Shown here one piece after another: positions 27,565 through 42,406 of a DNA stretch of 42,406 nucleotides. The stretch comes from Candidatus Thorarchaeota archaeon (GTDB lineage: Archaea; Asgardarchaeota; Thorarchaeia; Thorarchaeales; Thorarchaeaceae). The notes under the pieces are model-generated. The model did not search any database, was not told where the DNA came from, and saw only the letters and a program-made list of their open reading frames with translations. Numbering within the stretch: position 1 is the first letter of the stretch; the number at the start of each line of letters is the position of its first letter. The stretch spans positions 1 to 42,406 of the forward strand of contig JBHLQJ010000002.1 of assembly GCA_048884945.1 (NCBI GenBank), in the 5' to 3' direction. Both the position numbers and the translations under genes were made by a program.

Positions 27565-27963
27565 ATGATTCTGAATGGTGTAGTTAAAGTGACCGAAGAA
27601 AAGAGCTTCCCTCGTCGAGAACCATCTAAACTTACCACGATACGAAAACTATCTTCAAATACTCGAGGCCCTGTTAGAATAATGGGAATCGTTGTTGATG
27701 CTAGTCCGGGTCTTGTAGTTGTTCAAGACATATACGATGACGATGTAAAAAACGCAGGGAAAATCCAAGTCAGCGTTGAAGGATCTCTCGAAGTGAGTAA
27801 GAAATACATGTTTATTGGAGAAGTGACAGAGAAGACAATAGACACTGGAAAAGAACTCAGATTGAATGCATCAATCGCCCATAATATCGATAATTTAGAT
27901 ATTGTACTCTATAAAGAAGTTCGGGATATGGAGGGAAAGGTGACTAGAACAATGAGTGAATGA
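27565..27963 (+). CDS. small OB-fold-like protein (hypothetical)
   Basis: 132 aa. VRIMGIVVDASPGLVVVQD...IQVSVEG...KYMFIGEV gives a beta-rich OB-like pattern. It lies between tfs and pcna. Confidence 0.35.
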   Translation: MILNGVVKVTEEKSFPRREPSKLTTIRKLSSNTRGPVRIMGIVVDASPGLVVVQDIYDDDVKNAGKIQVSVEGSLEVSKKYMFIGEVTEKTIDTGKELRLNASIAHNIDNLDIVLYKEVRDMEGKVTRTMSE

Positions 27964-27976
27964 GGGATGGATAAAG

Positions 27977-28729
27977 ATGTTTCATGCAACTCTTGAAAGT
28001 AGCAAAACATGGAGGCAAATAGTTGATGCTTTGGCAACATTACTCACAGAAGCTCATTTCTTAATCAGGAATGACGGAATCTCACTTACTCAATACGACT
28101 CTTCAAGAGCTGCAATGGTTGATCTTTTTCTCCCATCGACTACATTCCAAGAGTACAACTGTAAGGGAGAACACGAAGTCAGCTTAGGATTAGATGAGCT
28201 CGTCAAAGTGAGTAAACGAATCGCTGGTGATGATAGACTTGAATTTTACCTAGACCAATCTCAGAATCGTTTTGAGATTAGGATGGTCGGCCAAGCTGAA
28301 CGAACATTCAAGATTCAACTATTGACACCCCCAGAAGAGAGGACCAAAAAAATTAGTCCAACGTTCGAAACACATGCTGAAATGTTCTCTGATGCATTCA
28401 AGCAAGTAGTAAAGGACATCGGTGTCGTTTCAAACCATATAAAAATCACTGTAACTAAGGAATCACTAGGCTTTGGCGGAGTTGGTGATGTTGGCGAGGC
28501 TGAGGTTTCCTTAAAACTTGGAGATGACTCTCTTTTATATCAATTAGAGGTGAAACAAGATGCCACTGCGATGTATGCTCTATCTTATCTCTTAGAAATT
28601 GCAAAAGCAATCTCAAGTGATACCTTAATCCTCCGAATGACCGAGAATAAACCCGTGATGCTTGAATTCTCAATTGCAGAAGGTGGAGTCATTAAATTCC
28701 TTTTGGCTCCAAGGATAGAGAGAAGATAG
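27977..28729 (+). CDS. pcna: PCNA sliding clamp, paralog 1
   Basis: MFHATLESSKTWRQIVDALATLL ... FLLAPRIE C-terminus. 250 aa. ATG at 27977 follows GAGGG. Confidence 0.9.
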   Translation: MFHATLESSKTWRQIVDALATLLTEAHFLIRNDGISLTQYDSSRAAMVDLFLPSTTFQEYNCKGEHEVSLGLDELVKVSKRIAGDDRLEFYLDQSQNRFEIRMVGQAERTFKIQLLTPPEERTKKISPTFETHAEMFSDAFKQVVKDIGVVSNHIKITVTKESLGFGGVGDVGEAEVSLKLGDDSLLYQLEVKQDATAMYALSYLLEIAKAISSDTLILRMTENKPVMLEFSIAEGGVIKFLLAPRIERR

Positions 28730-28914: not shown

Positions 28915-29670
28915 ATGTTTCACGCGACTCTCGATAGCACCAAAACCTGGAAACAGATTGTGGATGCCCTTGCTACCTTGCTTACAGAAGCACATTTTCG
29001 TGTGTCTGAATCCGGAATATCACTTCGTCAGCTCGACTCATCAAAAGCAGCAATGGTTGATTTGACCCTTCCATCAGGAATCTTTCAGGAGTATTCATGT
29101 AAGGGCGAACATGACATTTGCTTGGGTATTGATGAACTCGCCAAGGTGAGCAAAAGGATGGCTGGAGATGAGCACCTTGAGTTTAATCTTGACGAGTCTG
29201 AAAAACGGTTTGAGATTAGAATGGTTGGACAAGCGAGCAGAGTGTTTAAACTTCAGCTCCTCACCCCACCAGATGAACCGACAAAGAAACCTGGAATTCA
29301 GTTTGATGTGAAAGCAGAATTATTAGCCGACACTTTCAAACAAGCAATCAAGGACATTGGCGTCGTTTCTAGTCATGTGAAAATCAGCGCGGAATCAGAA
29401 CAACTCAACTTCGCTGGTGAAGGTGATACTGGTGAAGCCAATGTTGCACTAACAACTAAGGGTGATGCTCCAGCTCTTTTCCAGCTGGAAGTATCAGGTA
29501 AATCCGCGGCAATGTATGCACTCAACTACCTTAGCGAAATCTCAAAAGCGATTGCTAGTGACAGCCTAATGCTTCAATTCACATCCAACAAACCGATGAT
29601 GTTGGAATTTCCAATAGCAGAAGCTGGAAGTATAAGCTTCGTCCTTGCACCACGTGTAGAACGAAGATAA
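28915..29670 (+). CDS. pcna: PCNA sliding clamp, paralog 2
   Basis: MFHATLDSTKTWKQIVDALATLL ... FVLAPRVE. 251 aa. GGAG lies upstream of the ATG. Confidence 0.9.
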   Translation: MFHATLDSTKTWKQIVDALATLLTEAHFRVSESGISLRQLDSSKAAMVDLTLPSGIFQEYSCKGEHDICLGIDELAKVSKRMAGDEHLEFNLDESEKRFEIRMVGQASRVFKLQLLTPPDEPTKKPGIQFDVKAELLADTFKQAIKDIGVVSSHVKISAESEQLNFAGEGDTGEANVALTTKGDAPALFQLEVSGKSAAMYALNYLSEISKAIASDSLMLQFTSNKPMMLEFPIAEAGSISFVLAPRVERR

Positions 29671-29721: not shown

Positions 29722-31110
29722 ATGTCAAGTCAGAGCCAAGGTTTCACAAGCACGGTCTTGAAACTGCGATTCATGTTCCATGAGTACTACAAGTCCAACC
29801 CTGACTCTATTGACATTCCGGATAAAATCCACAATAGAGAGTTTGGTATTCAAAGTTGGGAATACAATTGGTATTGCCCTATGAGGAAAGGTCGTGACGA
29901 GGCTGGTCGGAATAAGGCAATAGGATGTGGACAGTCTGGGACATCATTCACAAACATCAAAATATGTCCAAATTGCGGATCTACTGACATCCAGACAACT
30001 ACATGGAAACGACATGTAGGTTATTTGAACCGTGATGAACTCGTCCGAGATTTGGTATCGGTAGCTCCTCACAGTGTCTATCATTCAGCGGCATTCTACA
30101 AGATTCCAGTCGCACGGCATATGAATGAAAAAGAATGGTTTGGAGCTGAGCTTGTCTTCGATATTGATGCAGATCATCTAGAATTACCATGTGCAAAAAA
30201 TCATGACGCATGGCGATGTAATGCTGAGAACTGTCATAAAACCGGAATTGGCACTCCGCCTGAGCGTTGTCCAGACTGTGATGGCACGAGTTTCAGTACA
30301 AGAAAGTGGGTATGTGAGAACTGTCTAGCCGAAGCTAAGAAATACACGAAGAAGCTCTATGATGAGTTCATCGTGACTGATTTTGGATTCAGTCCTGAAT
30401 CTATTCAACTTAATTACAGTGGTCATAGAGGATATCATATTCGTATTCGCGATCCCCGGGCTTTTACACTTGATTCGAATGGTCGTATTCAGATAGTACA
30501 CTACGTCATGGGTCTTGGTTTCAACACCGAGAAAGTCATTGTAAATCAAGGTGGAGTGGATAGAATACCAGACCGCGTCTTTCCAGGATGGGCTGGCAAA
30601 ATAGCTGATGCTATTGTAGATTTTGTACGAAACATAGAATCATACGATGGAACTGAGAGATGGGTCAAACCACTTAGAAAAGGAAAAGTCGCAGCCCTTG
30701 ATGGACTGCTAAGAACCCCTCCTATTTTGAATAAAGAAGCAAGAGATATTGGATTAAAGTCTTGGCAAGAAATCGCTGAGAAAGCAGCAGAGTTCTATGG
30801 TGGTGAGATAGACCGTCCGGTGACCCATGATGTTCACAGAGTTATTCGCTTAATTGGTAGTCTAAATGGAAAGACTGGATTTATGGTCAACAAGCTTACC
30901 AGAGATCAACTAGATGACTTCGATCCTTTTCGTGATGCAATTGTCTTTAATGATGGACAAATGAAGGTTAAATTTCTGCGCAAATCTCCTGGTGTCCCCC
31001 TTTTCAGAATTGGTGACGACACCTATGGTCCATATCATGGAGAATCCGTTGAATTACCAACAGCAGCAGCAGCATTTGTGTTATGCAAAGGAGTTGCTAT
31101 CATTGAGTGA
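29722..31110 (+). CDS. priS: DNA primase small (catalytic) subunit PriS with extra N-terminal zinc ribbon
   Basis: Catalytic LVFDIDADH, SGHRGYHIRI and RVIRLIGSLNGKTG motifs. Zn-knuckle C..H..C..CPDCDG. An additional CPMRKG..CGQSG..CPNCGS ribbon lies between the REFG and RH segments. Confidence 0.85.
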   Translation: MSSQSQGFTSTVLKLRFMFHEYYKSNPDSIDIPDKIHNREFGIQSWEYNWYCPMRKGRDEAGRNKAIGCGQSGTSFTNIKICPNCGSTDIQTTTWKRHVGYLNRDELVRDLVSVAPHSVYHSAAFYKIPVARHMNEKEWFGAELVFDIDADHLELPCAKNHDAWRCNAENCHKTGIGTPPERCPDCDGTSFSTRKWVCENCLAEAKKYTKKLYDEFIVTDFGFSPESIQLNYSGHRGYHIRIRDPRAFTLDSNGRIQIVHYVMGLGFNTEKVIVNQGGVDRIPDRVFPGWAGKIADAIVDFVRNIESYDGTERWVKPLRKGKVAALDGLLRTPPILNKEARDIGLKSWQEIAEKAAEFYGGEIDRPVTHDVHRVIRLIGSLNGKTGFMVNKLTRDQLDDFDPFRDAIVFNDGQMKVKFLRKSPGVPLFRIGDDTYGPYHGESVELPTAAAAFVLCKGVAIIE

Positions 31111-31717
31111 GCTAGGGTATAACGATATCAAATCTACATGGGAGAACGAAGTACAGAATGAAATTCTTCAAGATTTAGGTGACCTACGACTAAACAAAAT
31201 GATATCGTATCTCTCTAGTGTTCGTTTATCACTAGCATCTATGGATGCTGAAAAACGAGTCCAAGCTGATATACTCACACAAGAAGCTCTAAATCTCGAG
31301 TTCATGATTGAAGATCTTTTGACACTCCGAAGACAGAAGATATTGAAAGCTGCAATGTCTGGACACAAGCCTACTGGTGATATGACACTCGCAGAGGAAG
31401 AACTATACAATAGAACCCAACGAGCTCTTGATGGTCACACAGAGTTTATTGCAGACTCTCTAGCTGGGACTAAACCAAAGAAGGCAAAGAAAGGCGACGA
31501 TTCAGAACAATCCACAGCTCCCTCCTCCTCTGAAATGGTTGATTACGTGACTGTTAGATTTCTCCAACCAATCGGTGATGCCTTTTTGGGTATTGATGAG
31601 AAGACGTATGGGCCTTTCAAGAAGGAAGATGTTGCTATGATTCCTGCAGCTAATGCCAGAACTTGGTTGCGGGATGGCACAGTTGTCCGCATTGTCACTG
31701 AGGAGGATTTCTCTTAA
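31103..31717 (+). CDS. gins51: GINS subunit (Gins51/Gins15-type)
   Basis: A-domain helices with LRRQKILKAA. B-domain VTVRFLQPIGDAFLGIDEKTYGPFKKEDVAMIPAANARTWLRDG. TTG at 31103 follows AAAGGAG (31087-31093) and overlaps the priS stop. The track start at 30992 lies inside priS. Confidence 0.65.
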   Translation: MSELGYNDIKSTWENEVQNEILQDLGDLRLNKMISYLSSVRLSLASMDAEKRVQADILTQEALNLEFMIEDLLTLRRQKILKAAMSGHKPTGDMTLAEEELYNRTQRALDGHTEFIADSLAGTKPKKAKKGDDSEQSTAPSSSEMVDYVTVRFLQPIGDAFLGIDEKTYGPFKKEDVAMIPAANARTWLRDGTVVRIVTEEDFS

Positions 31718-32004
31718 TGAAAAAAGAAGATATAGATACTGAAATATCTGCACTCCTTTATTTCATCAATGAATCCCGTGACCAAGTCGCTTTGGAACAC
31801 GATAAATTCCAAGTCGCGCTCACTAACACACTTCGACTACTTGATGAGAGCAGCTCAACGCTCATTAAAATGAAAGGTAATGTAAAGTCACTAAAGTCAT
31901 ATCTAATCAGAACAAGTACCGAGATTCGTAATAGTTCGTTAGGTCAATTCGATAGCATAAAAGATAGAGTTGAGAGAATATATAAACTGCTACAAGCCCT
32001 TTAG
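31717..32004 (+). CDS. small coiled-coil protein translationally coupled to GINS
   Basis: 95 aa. ATG overlaps the GINS TAA (TAATG). GAGGAGGA SD at 31700-31707. Heptad-like helical sequence with no family recognised. Confidence 0.5.
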   Translation: MKKEDIDTEISALLYFINESRDQVALEHDKFQVALTNTLRLLDESSSTLIKMKGNVKSLKSYLIRTSTEIRNSSLGQFDSIKDRVERIYKLLQAL

Positions 32005-32044
32005 TATCGAAAGTACTAAGAGTACAGTAAGCACTGCTAAGTTC

Positions 32045-32233
32045 ATGTCATTGCACCGGAAATGGCTCTTTTACTTGACTGGCTTAGTGTGTATAGCGCT
32101 TGCAGTAGCAGGTGGACTACTGTATCCTGATACCCAGTGGGGTATACTGGCTCCAGTTTCTTTCGTGCTTGTAGTGTCTCTTGTCGCAATCGGTCTTCTT
32201 CGCTTGATATATTTGAAGGGACTTCCGGAGTAA
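32045..32233 (+). CDS. small two-TM membrane protein (hypothetical)
   Basis: MSLHRKWLFYLTGLVCIALAVAGGLLYPDTQWGILAPVSFVLVVSLVAIGLLRLIYL has two hydrophobic helices. I trimmed the start to the ATG at 32045. Confidence 0.3.
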   Translation: MSLHRKWLFYLTGLVCIALAVAGGLLYPDTQWGILAPVSFVLVVSLVAIGLLRLIYLKGLPE

Positions 32234-32352
32234 TTTCTTACGCTTAATATCATTGAACTACGCTATTCGTCGTTTCTGCAAACTTTTAATATGGGCTCTC
32301 AAATCGCTCACCCAACTGGCAAAATAGCCTTACACACAAATGGTGCACACCC

Positions 32353-32895
32353 ATGGCTGAAACAAAAGAACCGACTGAGTTCCCAGTCACGTTGATTGAC
32401 CCTATTGAAATGTCGAAACTTGACAGCAAATTCCGGGAAGAGATTCATAGCATGCCAAATGGCGAGGAGCTTTCTGCATGCTTTGCTTGTTCAACCTGCA
32501 CTGCGGCATGTCCCATTGCAAACATTTGGAAATACAAACCACATCAGTTAATCCGAATGATACTATTAGGTATGCGTGATGAAGTTCTCTCTTCTGATGA
32601 AATCTGGCTTTGTCTGACGTGTTTCCAGTGTCAAGAAAGGTGTCCCCAAAAAGTACGAGTAACTGACATTTTCTTTGACTGTAAAAACCTAGCTGCTGAA
32701 CAAGGAAAAGTTCCACCAAATATCGTCAACCTAGGCAGAGAACTGCTTGAGAAAGGCCAACTCTATACTGTCACAGCTGACTGGGAACGTGAAGACATGG
32801 GTCTAGAACCCGAAGTACCAGGTTTAGCAGTTGATGCTGTAAAAGAAATTCTAAAAGAAACCCGAACAAGCAAGCTTGTGGGTGGTGGTGAGTAG
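32353..32895 (+). CDS. hdrC: heterodisulfide reductase subunit C-like (2x[4Fe-4S])
   Basis: CFACSTCTAACP and CLTCFQCQERCP motifs. 180 aa. It directly precedes hdrB. Confidence 0.8.
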   Translation: MAETKEPTEFPVTLIDPIEMSKLDSKFREEIHSMPNGEELSACFACSTCTAACPIANIWKYKPHQLIRMILLGMRDEVLSSDEIWLCLTCFQCQERCPQKVRVTDIFFDCKNLAAEQGKVPPNIVNLGRELLEKGQLYTVTADWEREDMGLEPEVPGLAVDAVKEILKETRTSKLVGGGE

Positions 32896-32896
32896 G

Positions 32897-33763
32897 GTGC
32901 CGGTTTACAATTTATACATGGGCTGCAGTGTGCCAGCAAACTATCCAAATTACGAAACGGCAATGATCAAAGTCGCTACAGCCTTTGATATGCAATTGGA
33001 GTACATGGAAGGAGTCGCCTGCTGCGGAAGCCCCAATCTTCGTGCAATCGATTACATGGGATGGCTCACTGTAAATGCAAGGACATTGGCTATTGCTGAG
33101 AAAAACGGACACGACATCGTCACACCGTGCAATGGATGTTTTGGATCTCTCAAAGACACTTACCACTTTCTCAAGCATGATAATGATTATAGAAAGAAAG
33201 TCAATACCGCTCTGAAGAAGGAAGGTCTTGAATTCAAAGGCACAATAGTCCCTCGCCATTTTGTAGAGGCTCTCTATACAGACATTGGGATTGATGAAAT
33301 TAGGAAGAAGGTCACAAAACCCCTTGATGGTGTAGGAATTGCGATTCACTACGGTTGTCACGTTTTACGTCCAGCTGATGTGACTGAATTCAGACCAGAA
33401 TATCTAGACGAGTTAATCAAGGTCACTGGAGCATCGGTTGTAGAATATCCAATATGGAAACAATGTTGTGGTGCAACTATTCTTCCCGTCAACGAAAATC
33501 TAGGAATTAGACTGGCTCGTGACAAACTCAAATCGATGAAAGAATCCGGAGCTGAGTTCATTACTGTTGTCTGTCCAGCTTGTGGAAATCAATTGGATTT
33601 ACAACAGCTCGGTTTGAAAGAATCATATGGGGAAGAGTACAATCTACCAGTTCTTCTGTATCCCCAGATACTTGGTCTAGCATTGGGAATGGATGAGGAA
33701 GAGGTAGGACTTAGCATGAACAGAGTTCCTGCAGACCCAATTTTGAATCATTTGACCGGATGA
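32897..33763 (+). CDS. hdrB: heterodisulfide reductase subunit B-like (two CCG domains)
   Basis: YMGCSVP, VACCGSPN, KQCCGA and VCPACG motifs. GTG at 32897 follows GGTGGTGGTGAG and lies just after the hdrC stop. Confidence 0.85.
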   Translation: MPVYNLYMGCSVPANYPNYETAMIKVATAFDMQLEYMEGVACCGSPNLRAIDYMGWLTVNARTLAIAEKNGHDIVTPCNGCFGSLKDTYHFLKHDNDYRKKVNTALKKEGLEFKGTIVPRHFVEALYTDIGIDEIRKKVTKPLDGVGIAIHYGCHVLRPADVTEFRPEYLDELIKVTGASVVEYPIWKQCCGATILPVNENLGIRLARDKLKSMKESGAEFITVVCPACGNQLDLQQLGLKESYGEEYNLPVLLYPQILGLALGMDEEEVGLSMNRVPADPILNHLTG

Positions 33764-33774
33764 GGTGAAATAAA

Positions 33775-35025
33775 GTGACTAATCCGGTCCTTATCATTGG
33801 AGCCGGCGTTGCAGGCATGACTGCTGCAGTTGAGCTTGCAGACTCTGGGATTAAGACAATCCTTGTGGAACGACAGAGATCAGCAGGAGGTAACGCTTTG
33901 GTTCTTTACAAGGCATTTCCAACCGATGACTGTTTCTACTGCTTCGAGGGGAACCGCTGGCGTCCGGGAATCCGTAAATGCTTCTATAGGAGCGCGCTTA
34001 CAGATCAACCCAATATTGCTTTAAAGATGAATAGTGAAGTAGACGAAATCTCAGGCAGTCCTGGTAAATTTACTGTAAAACTGAACGTAGGTCCTGTGTA
34101 TGTCCATCCAAAGAAATGTACACTATGCGGACTTTGTATGGAAAAGTCTCAGGCTTTCTTTCTACTATCACCACAGTGCCAACCACAGGCAGTAATGTAT
34201 GACCCAACGAAAGCTGATGATGGTGCAAAACAGGCTGAAGATGAATGTCCAACAAAGGCAATCAATCTTAGTGCTCAACCAACAGAAGAAACAGTTCAAG
34301 TTTCAGACATTGTAATTGCAACTGGTTATCATGAGTTACAACCGACCAACATGGATGAATACTATTATGGAAAACATCCTAACATCATCACCCAACTAGA
34401 ACTGGCCAAGATTATCGATCCGATTGGAACCTCAAATGGGGCTCTGTTAAGACCCTCTGATGGAAAGCCCGCAAAACGAGTGATGATGGTACAGTGTGTT
34501 GGAAGCAGGGATGAGAATTACTATCCTTATTGTTCCAAAATTTGCTGTATCTTCGCTCTCAAACATGCAAATATACTCACACAGGAGAGAAACGATGTTC
34601 GAATAAGTGTAGTATACATGGATATCCGTACATATGACAGGTATGAACGATATTACCGCGAATCTCGAAATTCCGGAGTGGAGTTTATCAGAGGTAGAAT
34701 CACTCTCATTGAGCCACGAAAAGATGGTGCCTTAGATATAACAGTCTATGACTCACTCTTGAACAGATATCTCAAATTCCCTGTGGACATTTTTGTTCTC
34801 TCGTCAGCCCTCGAACCTCCTAAAGGGACTGACAAACTCATTGAAACACTTGGAATAAAGTCTGCAAGTGGATTTGTTGGAATTGCAGATCAAGCTTCAG
34901 AGAATGAAGTGGTGGTCGGTGACCATATCTATGCTTGTGGAACCGCACTTGGTCCTGCAGAAGTTCCTGAAAGTGTGACTCAGGCACGTGCAGTAGTGTC
35001 TAAGATTCTCCAGAGTAGGAAGTGA
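33775..35025 (+). CDS. hdrA: short HdrA-like FAD flavoprotein
   Basis: VLIIGAGVAGMTAAVELADSG dinucleotide fold, FPTDDCFYC and MVQCVGSRDENYYPYCSKICC (HdrA-type Cys cluster). 416 aa, lacking C-terminal ferredoxin domains. GTG start after GAGGTGA. Confidence 0.7.
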   Translation: MTNPVLIIGAGVAGMTAAVELADSGIKTILVERQRSAGGNALVLYKAFPTDDCFYCFEGNRWRPGIRKCFYRSALTDQPNIALKMNSEVDEISGSPGKFTVKLNVGPVYVHPKKCTLCGLCMEKSQAFFLLSPQCQPQAVMYDPTKADDGAKQAEDECPTKAINLSAQPTEETVQVSDIVIATGYHELQPTNMDEYYYGKHPNIITQLELAKIIDPIGTSNGALLRPSDGKPAKRVMMVQCVGSRDENYYPYCSKICCIFALKHANILTQERNDVRISVVYMDIRTYDRYERYYRESRNSGVEFIRGRITLIEPRKDGALDITVYDSLLNRYLKFPVDIFVLSSALEPPKGTDKLIETLGIKSASGFVGIADQASENEVVVGDHIYACGTALGPAEVPESVTQARAVVSKILQSRK

Positions 35026-35034
35026 AACTAACAG

Positions 35035-37200
35035 ATGGATAACAACAAATCAGCGGTACTCATCTGCACCTGTGGTAAACAGCTCCAGTTGGGATTTGAC
35101 TTCCTAGAAACTCAGATCAAAAAGATGAACTTAGCTTCTTCTGTGGATGTTCATGATCTTGTCTGTCAAGAAGAAGGTCTGGTCAAAATTGCAGAACTCC
35201 TAAAGACAAGTGATGGAAGACTCGTGATTGCTGCATGCTCCAGCCAGAAAATTCAACCACGAATTGATCATTATCTTGACTCAAAGGGTATAAACAGCTC
35301 CCAGATTCAGTATACGAACATTCGAGAGCACTCAGCATGGGTGCATAAAGACTTGGATGAAGCAAACAAAAAATCTGTAGATATGATTAGCGGCACGCTT
35401 GCAAGGTCTGCAAATTCCACAAAGCGCGTATTAGAACAAAAACAAATTTCTACGCACGTCACGGTAATAGGAGGTGGAATTGCAGGTGTTGAATCTGCGC
35501 TTAGCCTTTCAAACCTTGGTTACAAGGTCTCTCTAATAGAACTCACCGATGAGCTAGGAGGACATGTCAAGAGTCTTCCTGTGGTTGCTCCCACAGGTAA
35601 GTCAGGCAAGGAGATACTTAGTGGTCGATTAGAAGCACTTCAAAGTGATGATAATATTCAGATAATGATTAAGACAAAGGTCAGGTACGTTACAGGCGAG
35701 ATGGGTAACTTTGTAGTTCACTATTCATCTGAGAAAGACGAAGAGAAGACTTTGGAAACCGCTGCTATAGTATTAGCTAACGGATTCAAAGAATTCAAAC
35801 CAACATCTATGGAAGAGTATCATTACGGGAAGAATCCAAATGTCATCACCCAGTTTGAGCTTTCATGTATGCTCTCTGAAGGCGAACTTGTTCGACCATC
35901 TGATGGAAATCCGGTCAAAGATGTAGTAATGGTGCAGTGTGTTGGTAGTAGGGACGAGAACTACAAGAAAGACTGCAGTAAGTTATGCTGCACATTTGCT
36001 ATTGACAACTCTCTTGAAATCCTCAAGAGGATACCCGAAGCCAATGTCAGGATAGTCTACATGGACATCAGAGTCCCGTTCGAAAACGAGATGATATACA
36101 AAGAGTCTCGTGAGAAGGGCATTGACTATATTCGAGGCCGAATTAGTATGACCTGGGAAAAAGATGACTCTACATATGTGCGAATCTATGATTCTTTGCT
36201 TGACAAGTATCTTGAAACAACTGTGGATCTATTGGTCCTCTCGTCAGCAGTACTCCCCCCTGATGGGATTTCTGAGCTTTCCGAAACCTTAGGATACGCC
36301 GTCGAAGAGGATGGCCATGTGAAGGAACTCTATGGCAAACTAAGAAGGAATGAAACCCGTCGTCGTGGCGTTGTTGCGGTAGGAGGAGTCACACGTCCTC
36401 AATTTGTGTTTGAAGCAGTGACAGATGCCCAAGCTGGTGCGCTCATCATTCATAATGAACTCCAGAGCGGAGAGATTCAGTCTATTGCACGAGGTGCAGT
36501 TCTAGATGTGGATGATTGTGTTGGCTGCAGTCTCTGTGCTCAGCAGTGTCCACGCGGAGTTCCACTAATGATTGAACAGACAGAAGTTGAAGAAGCTGAC
36601 GAGGAACAAAAAATACTGTTCAAGGCTTCAATTGACACTCTAAATTGTCACTCCTGTGGAGTATGTCAGAGCTTGTGTCCTTCAGGTGCTACTCAGCTTA
36701 ATTTTCTATCTAACGAGCAACTCTGGTCTGAAATTGATGCCACGCTAGAAGGTGCAGGTTCTGAATATCCAATCACACTTTGCTTCTACTGCGAAGAGTG
36801 TTCTGTGTCTACAATTGACATTGTTGGTACCAGAAGAATGGAATACCCAGCTAGCACACGCCTAATTCCAGTTCCTTGTGCAGGTAGAATAAGCATCATC
36901 GACATCCTCAAGGCATTTGAGAATGGTGCCAGCACCGTAATGATAGCAGCTTGTGAGAAAGACCGATGTCATATAGGTGGAACTGGTAACGAAATTGCTC
37001 AGGTACAGGTAGATGTTGCCCAAGACATTTTGAAAGCTATTGGATGGGAGGGCAAACGTGTTGGTATGTTTAGGATGTTCAGCGCAGAGCCTGAACGCTT
37101 CACGAATGCAGTCAATGAAATGGTGAAACGTGCTAAGGAGCTAGGCCCCACCCCGGTTCATGAAGGCACTGCAGGGAAGTGGATGGAGGTGACTGAATGA
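35035..37200 (+). CDS. hdrA: HdrA fused to a C-terminal MvhD-like domain
   Basis: N-terminal Cys domain (LICTCG), VIGGGIAGVESAL, MVQCVGSRDENYKKDCSKLCC, and ferredoxin motifs CVGCSLCAQQCP and CHSCGVCQSLCP. The MvhD-like tail is LCFYCEEC...VPCAGRI...MIAACEKDRCH. Confidence 0.8.
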   Translation: MDNNKSAVLICTCGKQLQLGFDFLETQIKKMNLASSVDVHDLVCQEEGLVKIAELLKTSDGRLVIAACSSQKIQPRIDHYLDSKGINSSQIQYTNIREHSAWVHKDLDEANKKSVDMISGTLARSANSTKRVLEQKQISTHVTVIGGGIAGVESALSLSNLGYKVSLIELTDELGGHVKSLPVVAPTGKSGKEILSGRLEALQSDDNIQIMIKTKVRYVTGEMGNFVVHYSSEKDEEKTLETAAIVLANGFKEFKPTSMEEYHYGKNPNVITQFELSCMLSEGELVRPSDGNPVKDVVMVQCVGSRDENYKKDCSKLCCTFAIDNSLEILKRIPEANVRIVYMDIRVPFENEMIYKESREKGIDYIRGRISMTWEKDDSTYVRIYDSLLDKYLETTVDLLVLSSAVLPPDGISELSETLGYAVEEDGHVKELYGKLRRNETRRRGVVAVGGVTRPQFVFEAVTDAQAGALIIHNELQSGEIQSIARGAVLDVDDCVGCSLCAQQCPRGVPLMIEQTEVEEADEEQKILFKASIDTLNCHSCGVCQSLCPSGATQLNFLSNEQLWSEIDATLEGAGSEYPITLCFYCEECSVSTIDIVGTRRMEYPASTRLIPVPCAGRISIIDILKAFENGASTVMIAACEKDRCHIGGTGNEIAQVQVDVAQDILKAIGWEGKRVGMFRMFSAEPERFTNAVNEMVKRAKELGPTPVHEGTAGKWMEVTE

Positions 37201-39461
37201 GTCAACTAACATCAGAGAAAGTAATTGCTCCTAAAAGACAGCGCATGCTGGACATGATTCTGGCTCTTGGTGGACTCAAAGAAGAGGCGACAATTCCACT
37301 CAGTAAGGTCAAGGAAGAGATTGACAATCTGAAGAAAGAATTGGCACCATTGACCGACGCCATCCTTGCATTTCCCGACTCTTATTATGAGAAATTCTTG
37401 AATACAATTGAGAAACGAAATACTGTTTCTGAGATACACGATCGGGGAATTCTCAAAAAAGCCATCTCGGATCTTGATATAGTATCATCAAAAGCCGAAT
37501 CCAAATCCCTTGAAGGACTAAAAGAGTTGCTCACAATTGCTCTAAGTAGAATGGCTGAGGTTGAAGAAACACAGGGCCCTTCTATCGAGATAGATATGGC
37601 TACGAACCTTTCCAAACTCGCTGACTTGGTATCAGAAATAGAATCAATCACAGAAGGGTTTGAGAAGAAAGCAGAATCAGAAGCAAAGTCCGCACAGGCT
37701 GAGCTTGTGTCCTTGGTCGAAAATCTCAATGCAGCAAAATCAATGGCTGAAAATGACCCTGAAACCACTCTAGATGAGCTCCAAACCATTGGTTCTAAAA
37801 CAAGGTATGGCCCTGGACTAAGAGCTATCGCTCAAGTCAAACGAGGAAAGCGAGAGGGGCGAATTGACGACTCTCGGTTCCACGCACTCGTTATAGAAAA
37901 CATGCTCACTGAAGCAAATCGCGGGATGATAATGTTCATTCTTGGAAAAATGGGTTCAAAGACGGTCACTCAGATAGGAGAGCTCATGCAGACCACTCCC
38001 CAAACAATACAGAACGCTATTGTTACCATGATTCAGAGAGGTGAAGTTGAGATGGTCGGTCTTGATGGAAGCGCTCCCGTATTCTCCAAGGTTCTCACCG
38101 AAATACCCAACTCGACTCTGGCCATGAAAAGAATCGTACAACAGGTTCGTGGAATGGTCAAGTCACTTGAGCATAATCTGGTTGACAGTGCAAACACATC
38201 ACTTGAAAAATTACAAACATTACTAGAACGACTGCAAATACTGGGAACTTACGAAGAGAGTGAGCTTTCAGAACCAATGAACAAGCTACGAGAGCTTGTT
38301 GATAATACCACTCAAGCAGTTCTCACCACCCAGACAACTGATGATGCTAAAAACCTACGACTTCTAGTTTCAGCAGGTCTTGAGGCTTTTGCACGTTTTC
38401 GTCTGAAAATCGCCTTGGAGAAGGGTCCAAATCTCGTGTCTGGAACAAATGTCTACGGAGAAAAACTCAATCCTGAAGTCTACCAGACTATGATGGACTC
38501 TTATCTTGAGAATGAGCTTGAAAGAGGGACAATCCTAATTCTGATAAGAGAACTAGGCGCCCTCACAGCACATGACCTTGCTGAGAGAACAAATATTCCG
38601 CAGGACAGGATTCTCAGGCATCTGCTACGAATGAAACGTGATGAGCTTCTCACCATAGCTGGTGAGAGCCATGGCTATGTACTCTATGATGTACCTAGAA
38701 CACCATCAGAAGCTGAAATCACCATTCAAACAACCTGCTCCCTTGCTCTACAACTCTCTGAAGCCACGATAGAGTTACAGAGAATTTTGAGCGAATTGAA
38801 AGCGTCTGATATTGGGAAGCTAGCTAACTCTCTAGAAGTCTTTTCAAAGGCTCGCGATAAACTGGCAACAGTTCGTGTGAGTGGCGCTGTGATTGATGAA
38901 ACCACATTGAACGAAGTCGAGGACAAAATACGGTCAGCCCTCTTGCTTACTTATCGAACTCGCGCAAAGATACCCAGCACAAGGCCAAAGGTCTCGATTG
39001 AGGACCTAGCAGATGTTGATGTACCATCAGTCCTTGATGAGTATAGAAACCAGATGGGTTATGCGCCTTTGCTCGGATTTGGAACAATTGAATGGGAGCA
39101 ATCAAGGTGTCTCGGCTGCAAATCTTGTGAGATTGCATGTCCCGAGGATGCGATTGAGTTAGAACCTCGAATCGAGATTTCCAAGTTTTTTGAAATCTCT
39201 GATGAAGCCCTCTCTCAATTACCATCCAATCGGTCCATTTTGTACAAGACTGTGCAAAACCTTGCGAAGACAAAACCCTCAAAAGAAATTCTCCTCGCGA
39301 ACGATGCACCAGGATTTGGATCAATTGAAGTGGATCTCTGGCTTTGTGTTGCCTGTCGTACCTGTGTCAGGAGATGTCCAGGACCTGAAGGTGGAGCTTT
39401 AGAACTAGAGTTAAAGTGGAACCTGCCAGAAGTTGTAAGACACATAACATCAACCTCATAG
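37197..39461 (+). CDS. unrecognised 754-aa protein: helical repeats, two winged-helix-like modules and a split C-terminal 2x[4Fe-4S] domain
   Basis: ATG overlaps the hdrA::mvhD stop (ATGA) after GGAGGTGA. wHTH-like segments are MIMFILGKMGSKTVTQIGELMQTTPQTIQNAIVTMIQRGEVEMVG and ILILIRELGALTAHDLAERTNIPQDRILRHLLRMKRDELL. Fe-S motifs are CLGCKSCEIACP and CVACRTCVRRCP. Confidence 0.7.
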   Translation: MSQLTSEKVIAPKRQRMLDMILALGGLKEEATIPLSKVKEEIDNLKKELAPLTDAILAFPDSYYEKFLNTIEKRNTVSEIHDRGILKKAISDLDIVSSKAESKSLEGLKELLTIALSRMAEVEETQGPSIEIDMATNLSKLADLVSEIESITEGFEKKAESEAKSAQAELVSLVENLNAAKSMAENDPETTLDELQTIGSKTRYGPGLRAIAQVKRGKREGRIDDSRFHALVIENMLTEANRGMIMFILGKMGSKTVTQIGELMQTTPQTIQNAIVTMIQRGEVEMVGLDGSAPVFSKVLTEIPNSTLAMKRIVQQVRGMVKSLEHNLVDSANTSLEKLQTLLERLQILGTYEESELSEPMNKLRELVDNTTQAVLTTQTTDDAKNLRLLVSAGLEAFARFRLKIALEKGPNLVSGTNVYGEKLNPEVYQTMMDSYLENELERGTILILIRELGALTAHDLAERTNIPQDRILRHLLRMKRDELLTIAGESHGYVLYDVPRTPSEAEITIQTTCSLALQLSEATIELQRILSELKASDIGKLANSLEVFSKARDKLATVRVSGAVIDETTLNEVEDKIRSALLLTYRTRAKIPSTRPKVSIEDLADVDVPSVLDEYRNQMGYAPLLGFGTIEWEQSRCLGCKSCEIACPEDAIELEPRIEISKFFEISDEALSQLPSNRSILYKTVQNLAKTKPSKEILLANDAPGFGSIEVDLWLCVACRTCVRRCPGPEGGALELELKWNLPEVVRHITSTS

Positions 39462-39493
39462 CTTGACCATTGAATCACTCCATTGCCCTTTAG

Positions 39494-39513
39494 CAATTGA
39501 CTTATACAATTGA
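39494..39513 (+). promoter_or_regulatory. candidate promoter/operator of the acyl-CoA dehydrogenase gene
   Basis: Two CAATTGA motifs (39494-39500, 39507-39513) bracket a TATA-like CTTATAC about 45 nt upstream of the ATG at 39552. Confidence 0.25.
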
Positions 39514-39551
39514 GAAGATGTCAGAAACTGCAAATCCTTTGAGGGAGCACA

Positions 39552-40751
39552 ATGGTTGACTTCAGACTGACACATAACCAACAGGAGCTACAGAATAGAG
39601 CTAGAAAGTTTGCACAAGAATATATGATTCCCTATGCGCATTACTATGACAAAACCGGAGAATTTCCACGTCCAATAATTCAGAAATGCTGGGAGGAAGG
39701 ACTCATGAATTTGTCCATCCCAAAGGAGTATGGAGGTCCCGGCTTGGGCTCAATCGAACAATGTATCACAGTGGAAGAAATGGCGGCTGGGTGCGCAGGA
39801 ATGACCACTAGCATTTATGTAAATACATTAGGTGCTGAACCAATACTTGTAGCTGGGACGAATGAACAAAAGGAGAAGTATCTACGTCCACTTACTGAAG
39901 ACCTCAAATTCGTCAGTTTTGCATGTTCCGAACCAGGCATGGGTTCAGATGTTGCTGGAATACAGACTCGGGTAAAGAAAGAGGGAAGTAACTATGTGCT
40001 CAATGGTTCAAAGTTTTGGATAACAAATGCGCCTCATGCAGATTATTTCACAGTCTTTGCAAGCCTTGATCCAAGCCAGCGGCATAAAGCTCTTTGCGCT
40101 TTTATTGTAGATGCAGATACTCCAGGGGTCAAAACAGGTCGTCCTGTTGAAAAGATGGGGCATAGAGCATCTACTACCTCTTCTGTCATGTTTCGTGACG
40201 CCAAAGTGCCTGAGGAAAACATCTTGGGCAGTGAGGGGAAAGGCTTTGGAATCGCTATGAAGACTTTCGCTATGACTCGACCATCGATTGCCGCCTTTGC
40301 AACTGGCTTGGCACGAGCTGCTATGGAATATGCAAGGGACTATGTCAACAAACGAGATGTGTTTACTCAAAAACTACGAGAATTTGAAGTGACTCAGTTC
40401 AAATTAGCAGAAATGTACATGAAAATAGAGGCTTCAAGAGCACTATACTTGAAGGCTGCATGGACAACAGATAATGTTGGAGATGCCACGGTCCCTGCAA
40501 GTGTGGCAAAAGCATACGCCACTGATGCAGCCATGGAAATAGCAAGTGAGGCTCTTCAAATCCATGGCGGATATGGATATATTGACCAATATCCGCTCGA
40601 GAAGCTCTTCAGAGATGCGAAACTCTACCAGATTTATGAGGGGACCAGCGAGGTACAAAGACTCATTCTTGGTCGTCATGTCCTAAGTGGATATGAACCT
40701 GCCATGGATAAGATACCAAAGTGGTATAATGAAAAACCTCCAGATTTCTAG
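39552..40751 (+). CDS. acyl-CoA dehydrogenase (short/medium-chain type)
   Basis: ACSEPGMGSD, FWITNA, QIHGGYGY and YQIYEGTSEVQRLI (catalytic Glu region) motifs. 399 aa. GAGGGAG SD. Confidence 0.9.
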   Translation: MVDFRLTHNQQELQNRARKFAQEYMIPYAHYYDKTGEFPRPIIQKCWEEGLMNLSIPKEYGGPGLGSIEQCITVEEMAAGCAGMTTSIYVNTLGAEPILVAGTNEQKEKYLRPLTEDLKFVSFACSEPGMGSDVAGIQTRVKKEGSNYVLNGSKFWITNAPHADYFTVFASLDPSQRHKALCAFIVDADTPGVKTGRPVEKMGHRASTTSSVMFRDAKVPEENILGSEGKGFGIAMKTFAMTRPSIAAFATGLARAAMEYARDYVNKRDVFTQKLREFEVTQFKLAEMYMKIEASRALYLKAAWTTDNVGDATVPASVAKAYATDAAMEIASEALQIHGGYGYIDQYPLEKLFRDAKLYQIYEGTSEVQRLILGRHVLSGYEPAMDKIPKWYNEKPPDF

Positions 40752-40771
40752 GATAATTGGGAGATTCTGCT

Positions 40772-41146
40772 ATGATTGTTAAGAAACTAAATGATCTCAA
40801 ACAAATTGTTGCACTTGATGACACAATAATACGAGAGATACTCAATCCTAAGCATACAAAAGACACACTACATCTTGGATACAGTCTGGCACACGCAACT
40901 CTCCCGCCAAAGAAAGTTTCACTCCCACATCGGTTCAAGACAGCCTCAGAGGTCTATTACATCCTCAACGGAAATGGTCTCATGCATATTGACACCGAAA
41001 CGGAAAGGGTAGGACCTGGTGATACTATCTATATCCCACCAATGGCAGTTCAATCTATCGAAAATATTGGAAATACAAATCTGGAGTTCCTGTGTATCGT
41101 CTATCCTGAGTGGCAACCTGATGCTGAGGAACTTGTTCGCTCTTAA
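40772..41146 (+). CDS. cupin-domain protein
   Basis: HRFKTASEVYYILNGNGLMHID...VGPGDTIYIPPMAVQSIENIG is a two-motif cupin pattern. ATG at 40772 follows GGGAG. Confidence 0.7.
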   Translation: MIVKKLNDLKQIVALDDTIIREILNPKHTKDTLHLGYSLAHATLPPKKVSLPHRFKTASEVYYILNGNGLMHIDTETERVGPGDTIYIPPMAVQSIENIGNTNLEFLCIVYPEWQPDAEELVRS

Positions 41147-41265: not shown

Positions 41266-41742
41266 TCAACCATTTGAAGTATGAGCTCTCCACTGATTCT
41301 CTATCCACTGTTCCAATCCAACTTTTTCTATCGCCTTCAAGTTTTCAATGGTCTTCCACTTAATTATACCGGGCTTGCTCTTGAGATTCGAACACGGGAA
41401 ACTTGCACATTCACTACATAATGAGAAACCCCTTTCGAAGCAACATTTTCTGATATCACACCTTTCCTTCTCTTCTTTCGAATAATCAGGGATTTCAGCT
41501 TTGCATCCTGAACAAATCTTTGATTCTGCTAGTATTTGCAGCCCTCGCGAAAAGTTCTCGCCATCAACACCCTCCACTTGAAGTTGCTTCACGAACCCGC
41601 CATACTCTTGGAACATGTCGAGAGCAGCTTGTGCAGTCTTTCTTATTTTTCCTGAATGCCAATCACAAGTGTGACAATATGAACCGCAGAACGAAATGTA
41701 TCTCCTCTTCTCTTCCTCGTACCTCACCCACTGAGTCACCAT
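41266..41742 (-). CDS. Cys-rich DUF3795-like protein
   Basis: CGSYCHTCDW...CSGCKAE...CDIRKCCFERGFSLCSECASFPCSNL. The Cys spacing resembles DUF3795. Confidence 0.5.
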   Translation of the reverse strand: MVTQWVRYEEEKRRYISFCGSYCHTCDWHSGKIRKTAQAALDMFQEYGGFVKQLQVEGVDGENFSRGLQILAESKICSGCKAEIPDYSKEEKERCDIRKCCFERGFSLCSECASFPCSNLKSKPGIIKWKTIENLKAIEKVGLEQWIENQWRAHTSNG

Positions 41743-42016: not shown

Positions 42017-42406
42017 ATGCCACCCAAAGACATGAACATCATCGTATACGGCTGCATGCAATGTATGTACGCTGCGTCCGACCTCGCAGGAACGATGAAG
42101 TTGCAGTACGACATCACGAGTAGGATTATCCGAATGCCCTGCACCGCGCGACTGGACATTAACTTCTTACTCAAAGCGCTACAGGAGGGGGCGGATGGCG
42201 TACTAGTTGTGGGGTGTCATCCCGGGGACTGTGCATACAAAACAGGAAATCTGGGAGCTGAGCGTAGGGTCCGGTTTACAAGAAAATTGGTTGGTCAGTT
42301 AGGTCTGAACGAGGACCGTGTGAAGATGGTGTTCGTGTCAGCAGCCGAAGGTGACAAGTTTGCGGCAGAGGTCAACAAGTTCGCTGAGGAGATCCGAAAG
42401 ATTGGC
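42017..42406 (+). CDS. mvhD: stand-alone MvhD/FlpD-like protein (runs off window end)
   Basis: My own translation is MPPKDMNIIVYGCMQCMYAASDLAGTMKLQYDITSRIIRMPCTARLDINFLLKALQEGADGVLVVGCHPGDCAYKTGN.... The frame has no stop before the window end, which is probably why it is absent from the track. Confidence 0.75.
   Translation, partial: MPPKDMNIIVYGCMQCMYAASDLAGTMKLQYDITSRIIRMPCTARLDINFLLKALQEGADGVLVVGCHPGDCAYKTGNLGAERRVRFTRKLVGQLGLNEDRVKMVFVSAAEGDKFAAEVNKFAEEIRKIG

Follow-up and report, generated by a model that had tools for sequence, protein, structure and literature searches.

A putative hydrogenase-less HdrABC-type complex of Asgard archaea and the new iron-sulfur protein encoded beside it

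Gene organization of the locus

The stretch of DNA analysed here, referred to throughout as the window, comprises 42,406 nucleotides (nt) from a Candidatus Thorarchaeota archaeon (assembly GCA_048884945.1, contig JBHLQJ010000002.1, positions 1 to 42,406) and carries a compact cluster of genes related to those of heterodisulfide reductase (HdrABC), together with a gene for a protein of 754 amino acids (aa), designated X in this work. The window has a G+C content of 42%, the nearest relatives of its proteins come from sources labelled Thorarchaeota, Sifarchaeia or Promethearchaeota, and a Pfam scan finds genes typical of Asgard archaea around the operon, including Cdc6, the PolD small subunit, two PCNAs, primase, GINS and a Roadblock/Arf-like GTPase cluster. 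Gene identities were assigned using Pfam and NCBIfam profiles, and structural relatives were identified by alignment to PDB chains; the Pfam scans covered open reading frames (ORFs) of at least 180 aa plus several smaller ones.

All genes of the cluster lie on the plus strand. A promoter-like element of the B recognition element (BRE)/TATA type (TCTGCAAACTTTTAATATGGGC, 32275-32296) is located about 60 nt 5' of an hdrC-like gene (32353-32895; 180 aa, two [4Fe-4S] clusters, matches to Fer4_8 and Fer4_17), which is followed by an hdrB-like gene encoding two CCG domains (32897-33763; 288 aa, PF02754 matched twice), by hdrA' (33775-35025; 416 aa), whose thioredoxin-reductase-like flavin adenine dinucleotide (FAD) core is recognized by alignment to the HdrA structure 8rvv, and by an hdrA::mvhD fusion (35035-37200; 721 aa) that matches both FlpD (PF02662) and the HdrA2 model NF040770. 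The gene for X, a winged-helix/Fe-S protein (37197-39461), overlaps hdrA::mvhD in an ATGA. Downstream, the spacer holds a conserved promoter-like or regulatory motif, TTAGCAATTGACTTATAC (TTAGCAAYTGACTTATAC), at 39490-39507, about 45 nt before the start of a gene for an acyl-CoA dehydrogenase (ACAD) resembling medium-chain acyl-CoA dehydrogenase (MCAD) (39552-40751; 399 aa, three ACAD Pfam domains), and a cupin gene follows (40757-41146; 129 aa, Cupin_2 match at 1e-12). In gene order, the junctions between these genes measure +1, +11, +9, -4 (ATGA), +90 and +5 nt. The preliminary description of this DNA had listed the same seven genes with tiny or overlapping junctions, including the ATGA coupling and the 90-nt gap; its coordinates and spacings agree with those measured here, and its labels with Pfam and NCBIfam. 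A free-standing mvhD gene (42017-42406, plus strand; FlpD, 152 bits), cut by the window end, was not in its list.

HdrB, HdrC and a divided HdrA

HdrB, HdrC, MvhD and both FAD cores retain all of their cofactor-binding motifs. In HdrC, both CX2CX2CX3CP motifs are present in the translation (CFACSTCTAACP and CLTCFQCQERCP), with a Fer4_8 match at 2e-12. HdrB aligns with the methanogen HdrB structures 8rvu and 5odc at 240 bits, and all ten cysteines of its two CCG domains align with HdrB of 8rvu. A GTG start at 32897 gives hdrB the 288-aa length of its relatives, and the ORF list also contains a TTG start at 32876. Scores against the curated equivalog models all fall under the respective cutoffs: 106 bits for HdrC against TIGR03290 (cutoff 160), 279 bits for HdrB against TIGR03288 (cutoff 345), and, for HdrA, 329 bits against NF041778 (cutoff 1400) and 454 bits, scored by the 721-aa protein, against NF040770 (cutoff 1100). 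Because no curated HdrA, HdrB or HdrC cutoff is reached, the encoded proteins are to be regarded, on the basis of their sequences, as relatives of heterodisulfide reductase and not as a demonstrated one.

HdrA is divided between two paralogues whose domain sets complement each other, and the best NCBIfam model of both is NF040770 (HdrA2). The 416-aa product of hdrA' aligns with residues 142-555 of HdrA 8rvv at 247 bits and covers positions 140-556 of NF040770; it thus consists of the HdrA core and a one-cluster remnant of the inserted ferredoxin domain, without the N- and C-terminal HdrA domains, and its earlier label of a truncated HdrA-like flavoprotein proved apt. The 721-aa protein comprises an N-terminal domain, the FAD core, a C-terminal ferredoxin domain and MvhD, the last recognized by a FlpD match at residues 582-704 (PF02662, 115 bits) with its conserved cysteines visible. 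This protein had been described as a full HdrA, a label that no longer applies, since it is devoid of the inserted ferredoxin domain, and its alignment with 8rvu skips chain residues 243-319. Neither paralogue, therefore, is a single HdrA with all four domains, and the full set is present only across the two. Both retain the GxGxxG and CVGSRD..CSxxCC motifs, and they share 43% identity over the flavin core.

Protein X, a new family with a duplicated winged-helix body

As judged from exhaustive homology searches, X is a new protein family, found in Asgard archaea only. An HMMER search with residues 1-625, from which the ferredoxin domain was excluded, against 1.84 billion representative proteins returned 48 hits, about 20 of which extend past one winged helix and represent full-length relatives or fragments, while the rest match one winged helix. 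A second, word-indexed homologue search starting from the alignment retrieved the same Thorarchaeota list again and added little. The sources of the family members are named Thorarchaeota, Helarchaeota, Lokiarchaeota, Sifarchaeia and Hermodarchaeota. Two groups can be distinguished, one from Thorarchaeota with 49-93% identity, and one of 734-747 aa with 19-25% identity, from metagenome-assembled genomes (MAGs) named Helarchaeota or Lokiarchaeota. In an alignment of 14 sequences, eight cysteines are invariant and make up two CX2CX2CX3CP motifs, between which lies a conserved insert of about 60 residues; an invariant GFG precedes the first cysteine motif, and an N-terminal KR and an EK(G) motif near residue 408 are also seen.

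With this alignment, AlphaFold2 produced a model of X with a predicted local distance difference test (pLDDT) score of 75.5 and confident domains, while single-sequence prediction gave an unusable model (pLDDT 38). The model begins with a long helical N-terminal part, followed by an extended winged helix (225-300), helices, a second extended winged helix (426-498) with helices, a disordered linker (595-626) and the ferredoxin domain (627-745). The protein is internally duplicated, its two winged-helix/helical halves matching each other with an hhalign probability of 98.6% (E = 9e-16). A PDB sequence search with X found nothing beyond generic ferredoxin motifs, and Foldseek against the PDB found no real structural homologue: the best match, to RPC62/RPC82, is very weak (E = 9e-4, TM score about 0.1, 11% identity), and the others are local matches to MarR-type regulators and to the ferredoxin domains of PFOR and FwdF. 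Weak matches to the RPC82 family HTH_9 (PF08221) occur in 6 of the 14 members. RPC82/RPC62 of RNA polymerase III is likewise an assembly of extended winged-helix repeats and helical elements, a resemblance limited to elements of the fold; X, by comparison, is equipped with a ferredoxin domain and encoded in a redox operon.

A MarR_2 match of 30.8 bits against a cutoff of 27 supports the winged-helix fold. The conserved basic recognition helix expected of MarR/ArsR-type regulators is, however, missing: the recognition helix of the first winged helix has a net charge of about 0 (-2 to +1) in all 14 sequences, and in the second the charge is +4 for Thorarchaeota, whereas most Helarchaeota-type sequences have -2 to +1. 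Because the recognition helices are not conserved as basic, the winged helices are more readily interpreted as structural than as DNA-binding. No substrate, flavin or NAD(P)H site can be recognized in the canonical X of the window. No description of X or of the five-gene module was found in the literature, although this result is not conclusive, since subscription journals were mostly outside the search.

Conservation across Asgard loci

For the analysis of gene context, 63 loci were fetched from one-genome-per-species archaeal and bacterial contigs, and extra loci came from exact look-ups and a metagenome scan, all ORFs being searched with the proteins of the window. The sample splits into 67 Thorarchaeota-type and 9 Helarchaeota/Lokiarchaeota-type loci, and the counts given below are limited to loci with enough upstream or downstream sequence for the respective test.

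Among the 51 Thorarchaeota loci whose upstream sequence is long enough, 50 show the order hdrC-hdrB-hdrA'-hdrA::mvhD-X. The one exception, L031, which seemed to be without the hdr genes, is explained by N gaps in its scaffold. The nine loci of the other type are arranged as hdrA'-hdrA::mvhD-X-hdrC-hdrB, and a metagenome scan with the Helarchaeota-type alignment detected this arrangement identically in all of its five loci. The pair of HdrA sizes recurs there as well (431-448 aa and 705-791 aa). X directly follows hdrA::mvhD in every locus examined, 67 and 9 alike, so that X, the split HdrA pair and HdrCB stay together despite rearrangement and about 75% sequence divergence, while the ACAD does not. 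The gene order, which the preliminary description had proposed to examine in relatives, is therefore conserved, and X, occurring in two distant Asgard classes, is not sporadic. The five-gene module appears, from these comparisons, to be universal in Thorarchaeota and present also in Helarchaeota/Lokiarchaeota-type genomes. The suggestion that the 754-aa protein is the conserved partner of the Hdr module is borne out by its following hdrA::mvhD everywhere, even at 19-25% identity and in a rearranged order.

Synteny within Thorarchaeota should be interpreted with care. Primase and GINS genes plus two small ORFs lie directly 5' of hdrC in 48 Thorarchaeota loci, and because these unrelated genes are equally conserved, class-wide synteny is weak as functional evidence. 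In the Helarchaeota/Lokiarchaeota-type loci, the genes that come before hdrA' encode two giant HdrA fusions, a free MvhD and a 94-aa protein. The giant fusions, of about 1015 aa and more than 900 aa, each contain duplicated FAD cores and ferredoxin domains, one of them ending in MvhD; they were observed in the 6 kb upstream of hdrA' in L005, L009, L072, L073 and L076, and no counterpart adjoins the Thorarchaeota operon.

Six species representatives of the Thorarchaeota, as well as independent metagenome contigs, encode a variant form of X that is about 972 aa long (loci L059, L061-L065, L007 and L008). It contains a Fer4_20 plus Pyr_redox_2 module at approximately residues 160-630, replacing the first winged helix and flanking helices, and keeps the N-terminal stretch of ~160 residues together with the second winged helix and the ferredoxin domain. 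In PDB comparisons, this module scores 328-403 bits against NfnB-type NADPH-binding bifurcating flavoprotein modules (9bov, 9n5u 'NfnA', 8oh5 and 4ylf_B). The variant therefore suggests that X is the site where evolution plugs redox input or output into the complex, and in the subclade that bears it NAD(P)H would be the substrate on the X/MvhD branch.

Transcription units and the acyl-CoA dehydrogenase

Among Thorarchaeota loci, the median junctions are +1 nt for hdrC/hdrB, +13 nt for hdrB/hdrA' and +6 nt for hdrA'/hdrA::mvhD, and the hdrA::mvhD/X junction has a median of -4 (range -4 to -1, n = 60); the junctions within the operon other than this last one span 0-18 nt. The X/ACAD spacer is longer, with a median of +85 nt and a range of 50 to 163. 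Upstream of hdrC, TCTGCAAACTTTTAATATGGGC is the single conserved promoter-like motif across the class; about 50 Thorarchaeota loci keep it nearly unchanged and at a fixed distance from the hdrC start, even though their proteins share only 49-91% identity. The 18-bp motif in the X-ACAD spacer is unique in the window, where 0.07 copies would be expected by chance; about 45 of the 67 Thorarchaeota loci have a match at the same place that deviates at no more than 4 positions. A GAGGGAG sequence resembling a ribosome-binding site comes after the motif, which was not found in the Helarchaeota-type loci. A scan for bacterial sigma-70 promoters and terminators was set aside as uninformative for an archaeon.

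Both elements resemble archaeal BRE/TATA-type promoters, a function inferred from their sequence and position. With two candidate promoters, two units are expected, hdrCBA'A-X and ACAD(-cupin), and the seven genes thus probably form two transcription units. The earlier idea of one seven-gene operon does not fit this picture, since the X-ACAD spacer carries its own conserved promoter-like motif.

The ACAD matches PF02771, PF02770 and PF00441, its translation contains the YEGT motif with the catalytic base (IYEGTSE), and it aligns with mitochondrial MCAD structures at 397 bits, as a canonical MCAD-like enzyme. It is encoded within 400 nt of X in all 61 Thorarchaeota loci with enough downstream sequence, and no ACAD gene occurs within 10 kb of X in the 9 Helarchaeota/Lokiarchaeota-type loci. 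The cupin gene varies in position, adjoining that of the ACAD in 21 of 38 loci with enough downstream sequence. The ACAD is accordingly seen as a conserved neighbour, probably in a separate transcription unit, and what ties it and the cupin to the complex is class-wide synteny only. An apparent X-ACAD fusion of 1161 aa in L043, a would-be Rosetta-stone link, proved to be an artefact of a run of 100 N.

Electron-donor genes and free-standing mvhD

Genes for hydrogenase, formate dehydrogenase (Fdh) and electron transfer flavoprotein (ETF; EtfAB) were not detected in the 42-kb window by the Pfam scans, and the same holds for an FrhB-like gene; flxA, flxB or flxC were not found beside the hdr genes in the window. 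The absence of hydrogenase, Fdh and Etf genes from the window, as described before, therefore holds. The possibility then raised that such genes lie just outside it was pursued in a 93%-identical relative (L074), where none of the three kinds occurs within 10 kb past the position of the window end; that region encodes a free-standing MvhD, hypothetical proteins, GNAT, HD, AsnC and JAB proteins, RNase P and ribosomal genes.

Of 38 Thorarchaeota loci, 21 carry an orthologue of the free-standing mvhD (131-136 aa) at a distance of 1-8 kb downstream from X. The copy in the window is an orphan, with no hydrogenase adjoining. At 5524-5904 of L005 and 2645-3025 of L006, gene prediction divides the Helarchaeota-type free mvhD into two FlpD fragments (57 and 48 aa), and the same gene is intact in L009 and L072 (128-141 aa). 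The split may reflect either an in-frame UGA for selenocysteine or a frameshift; MvhD selenoproteins have been reported in Asgard archaea (PMC9723677).

Proposed complex and alternative explanations

Taken together, these observations make it fairly probable that the locus encodes a cytoplasmic, hydrogenase-less, Asgard-specific HdrABC-type complex built from five co-transcribed genes, with X serving as the Fe-S adaptor at its MvhD end. In methanogens, HdrA is active as a homodimer whose protomers share electron paths (5odc, 7bkb). Because of this and of the complementary domain sets of the two paralogues, an obligate HdrA'/HdrA::MvhD heterodimer is the simplest reading; it would be equivalent to the methanogen homodimer and would form the flavin-based bifurcating or confurcating core, with HdrBC handling a thiol/disulfide couple as the high-potential branch. 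In solved Mvh-Hdr and Fdh-Hdr complexes, MvhD bridges the Fe-S chain of the donor to HdrA (5odc, 7bkb, 8rvu). X would be non-catalytic, its C-terminal domain with two [4Fe-4S] clusters connecting the fused MvhD, through its [2Fe-2S] cluster, with a redox partner, and it would take the role of MvhG or FdhB in the methanogen complexes. Its duplicated winged-helix/helical body would serve as a docking platform and not as a DNA-binding module, and the partner of the canonical X would bind in trans.

Several points weigh against this proposal. Both the five-protein complex and the contact between X and MvhD are inferred, and the adaptor role is an argument from absence, given that X has no recognizable substrate or flavin site. 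The equivalog cutoffs for HdrA, HdrB and HdrC are not reached, so the substrate need not be a heterodisulfide. The nearby free-standing mvhD (42017-42406) indicates other MvhD-mediated contacts, and the search for donors such as MvhAG covered the window and 10 kb past its end in L074. The wiring could also differ, in that the clusters of X replace those of the inserted domain, which would make X the low-potential exit instead of part of the MvhD branch.

A model that builds on the preliminary description, considered unlikely here, has X bridge the MCAD-like ACAD to Hdr/MvhD, so that the oxidation of acyl-CoA or the reduction of enoyl-CoA would be coupled to ferredoxin and a disulfide with no need for ETF, by analogy with MetFV-HdrABC-MvhD and the logic of Bcd-EtfAB. 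The constant position of the ACAD gene after X in the 61 Thorarchaeota loci, those with the NfnB-insert variant included, speaks for it, as do the order hdrC-hdrB-hdrA-mvhD-[Fe-S protein]-[flavoenzyme], which mirrors Moorella hdrCBA-mvhD-metVF, and the best NCBIfam matches of the ACAD, which are of Bcd type (acryloyl-CoA reductase and cyclohexanecarboxyl-CoA dehydrogenase). However, the upstream primase and GINS genes are equally syntenic (48 loci), the nine Helarchaeota/Lokiarchaeota-type loci have no ACAD within 10 kb of X, the 50-163 nt spacer holds its own promoter-like motif, and the L043 fusion is a run of N. The acyl-CoA/enoyl-CoA couple, at about -10 mV, is too positive to act as a donor and drive Hdr-type bifurcation, and an enoyl-CoA acceptor would make HdrBC redundant. 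In addition, the enzyme is nearest to ETF-dependent MCAD; EtfAB genes were not found near it in the window or in L074, but a Thorarchaeota MAG is reported to encode EtfAB (PMC8072921). A partnership with acyl-CoA oxidation is thus not upheld, the ACAD being an ordinary MCAD-like enzyme behind its own promoter-like motif and missing from Helarchaeota-type loci. What stands of the original interpretation is a hydrogenase-less Hdr module partnered by the 754-aa protein, and what falls is the membership of the ACAD and cupin.

It is even less probable that the locus encodes an ordinary Mvh- or Fdh-dependent heterodisulfide reductase with its donor encoded elsewhere and X as a minor polyferredoxin-like accessory. 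The hdr and mvh genes of methanogens are often unlinked, HdrB scores 240 bits against true HdrB with all cysteines present, and MvhADG-HdrABC has been reported for Asgard archaea (PMC7015854, PMC11291895). Nevertheless, with MvhD fused to HdrA and X next with a 4-nt overlap in every locus, X and not MvhG appears as the dedicated neighbour; the module departs from the canonical enzyme in its divided HdrA and in its equivalog scores under the cutoffs, and neither a hydrogenase nor an Fdh gene occurs in the roughly 32 kb upstream or the 10 kb downstream. A redox-sensing transcription factor, with X reporting the redox state of Hdr and controlling nearby promoters such as that of the ACAD, would agree with the two winged helices and their MarR/ArsR/TrmB matches, with the +4 charge of the second recognition helix in Thorarchaeota and with the 18-bp motif just 3' of the X stop codon, but this role is highly improbable. 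The recognition-helix charge is not conserved, X at 754 aa is large and net acidic in the window and other Thorarchaeota copies, its gene is translationally coupled to that of an enzyme subunit, and its Fe-S domain belongs to the classical dicluster ferredoxins of electron transfer; moreover, an NfnB enzyme module can stand in for the first winged helix, and Helarchaeota-type loci have no 18-bp motif.

Relation to known Hdr-type systems

For Asgard archaea, MvhADG-HdrABC, Flx/Fix-HdrABC, multiple HdrA copies and 'unidentified heterodisulfide' acceptors have been reported (PMC7015854, PMC11291895, PMC11237513, PMC9723677, PMC6478937). With the methanogen MvhADG-HdrABC and FdhAB-MvhD-HdrABC complexes (5odc, 7bkb, 8rvu), the present module shares the CCG domains and ten cysteines of HdrB, the dicluster HdrC, the HdrA FAD core with its CVGSRD..CSxxCC motif and MvhD as adaptor. 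It differs from them in having no hydrogenase or Fdh gene nearby, a split HdrA, MvhD fused to one HdrA, the extra protein X and scores under the NCBIfam equivalog cutoffs; CoM-S-S-CoB is unlikely to be the substrate, because the host is not a methanogen. HdrA2B2C2 of Methanosarcina offers a parallel for the HdrA::MvhD fusion, with MvhD at the HdrA C-terminus, and HdrA2 is also the best model here. The Helarchaeota-type loci resemble Methanosarcina hdrA-polyferredoxin-hdrCB, with an Fe-S protein gene between hdrA and hdrCB. However, the score against the HdrA2 model is 454 bits with a cutoff of 1100, a second, truncated HdrA is present, and X differs from the Methanosarcina polyferredoxin in combining one dicluster domain with 620 residues of winged-helix/helical scaffold.

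In the MetFV-HdrABC-MvhD cluster of Moorella, the genes hdrC-hdrB-hdrA-mvhD are followed by an Fe-S adaptor and a flavoenzyme acting on a fairly positive couple. The gene order is alike, but MetF and MetV are missing here, the flavoenzyme is an ACAD encoded behind its own promoter-like element, and the Helarchaeota-type module has no ACAD. FlxABCD-HdrABC of Desulfovibrio and NfnAB/HdrL-type modules are similar in their non-hydrogenase input through an MvhD-like protein, and the Thorarchaeota X variant of ~972 aa shares an NfnB-type NADPH flavoprotein module with NfnAB-type systems. In contrast to these, the window has no flxABC, and canonical X lacks both a flavin and an NAD(P)H site. Earlier work has reported Flx-Hdr in Asgard archaea (PMC7015854).

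Other features of the neighbourhood

The region 29722-32233, directly 5' of hdrC, holds the primase and GINS genes and two small ORFs without a Pfam family (95 aa, 31717-32004; 87 aa, 31970-32233), the first of which overlaps the GINS stop codon. Both travel with the GINS gene in Thorarchaeota, and neither shows similarity to the 93-95-aa gene preceding the Helarchaeota-type hdrA'. This synteny of replication genes with a redox operon is unusually deep and is observed in nearly every Thorarchaeota species representative. Tandem PCNA paralogues lie at 27956-28729 and 28915-29670, as also in L004 and L074, while a single PCNA occupies the corresponding position in Thorarchaeota L001-L003. At 201-2661, genes for a Roadblock/LC7-domain protein (315 aa), a 306-aa protein without a Pfam family and an Arf/Ras-family small GTPase (193 aa) form a cluster that looks like an Asgard 'eukaryotic signature' GTPase module. 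Between the cupin gene and the free mvhD, the minus strand encodes a cysteine-rich DUF3795 protein (41266-41742; 158 aa), whose gene is kept at this position only in the closest relatives L011 and L074 and lies elsewhere in L028 and L038.

Implications

The class-wide synteny of the Thorarchaeota operon is also a caution, in that it is not to be taken as functional linkage. A bolder and distinctly improbable extension would make X an Asgard-only electron-input subunit linking the Hdr-type bifurcating flavoprotein directly to flavin dehydrogenases, in Thorarchaeota to the adjacent MCAD-like ACAD; if true, this would constitute an ETF-independent link of beta-oxidation or enoyl-CoA reduction to ferredoxin and thiol pools in the archaea most closely related to eukaryotes.

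No machinery of flavin-based bifurcation is as widespread as the Hdr-type modules, and how they are fed in non-methanogens is a standing question. In the proposed Asgard complex, a dedicated, undescribed subunit, X, would stand where a hydrogenase would be. The module offers a target for co-expression and purification, with NAD(P)H as a testable donor in the variant, and may help to separate the Asgard HdrA copies that are now lumped together as 'HdrABC' in metabolic reconstructions.

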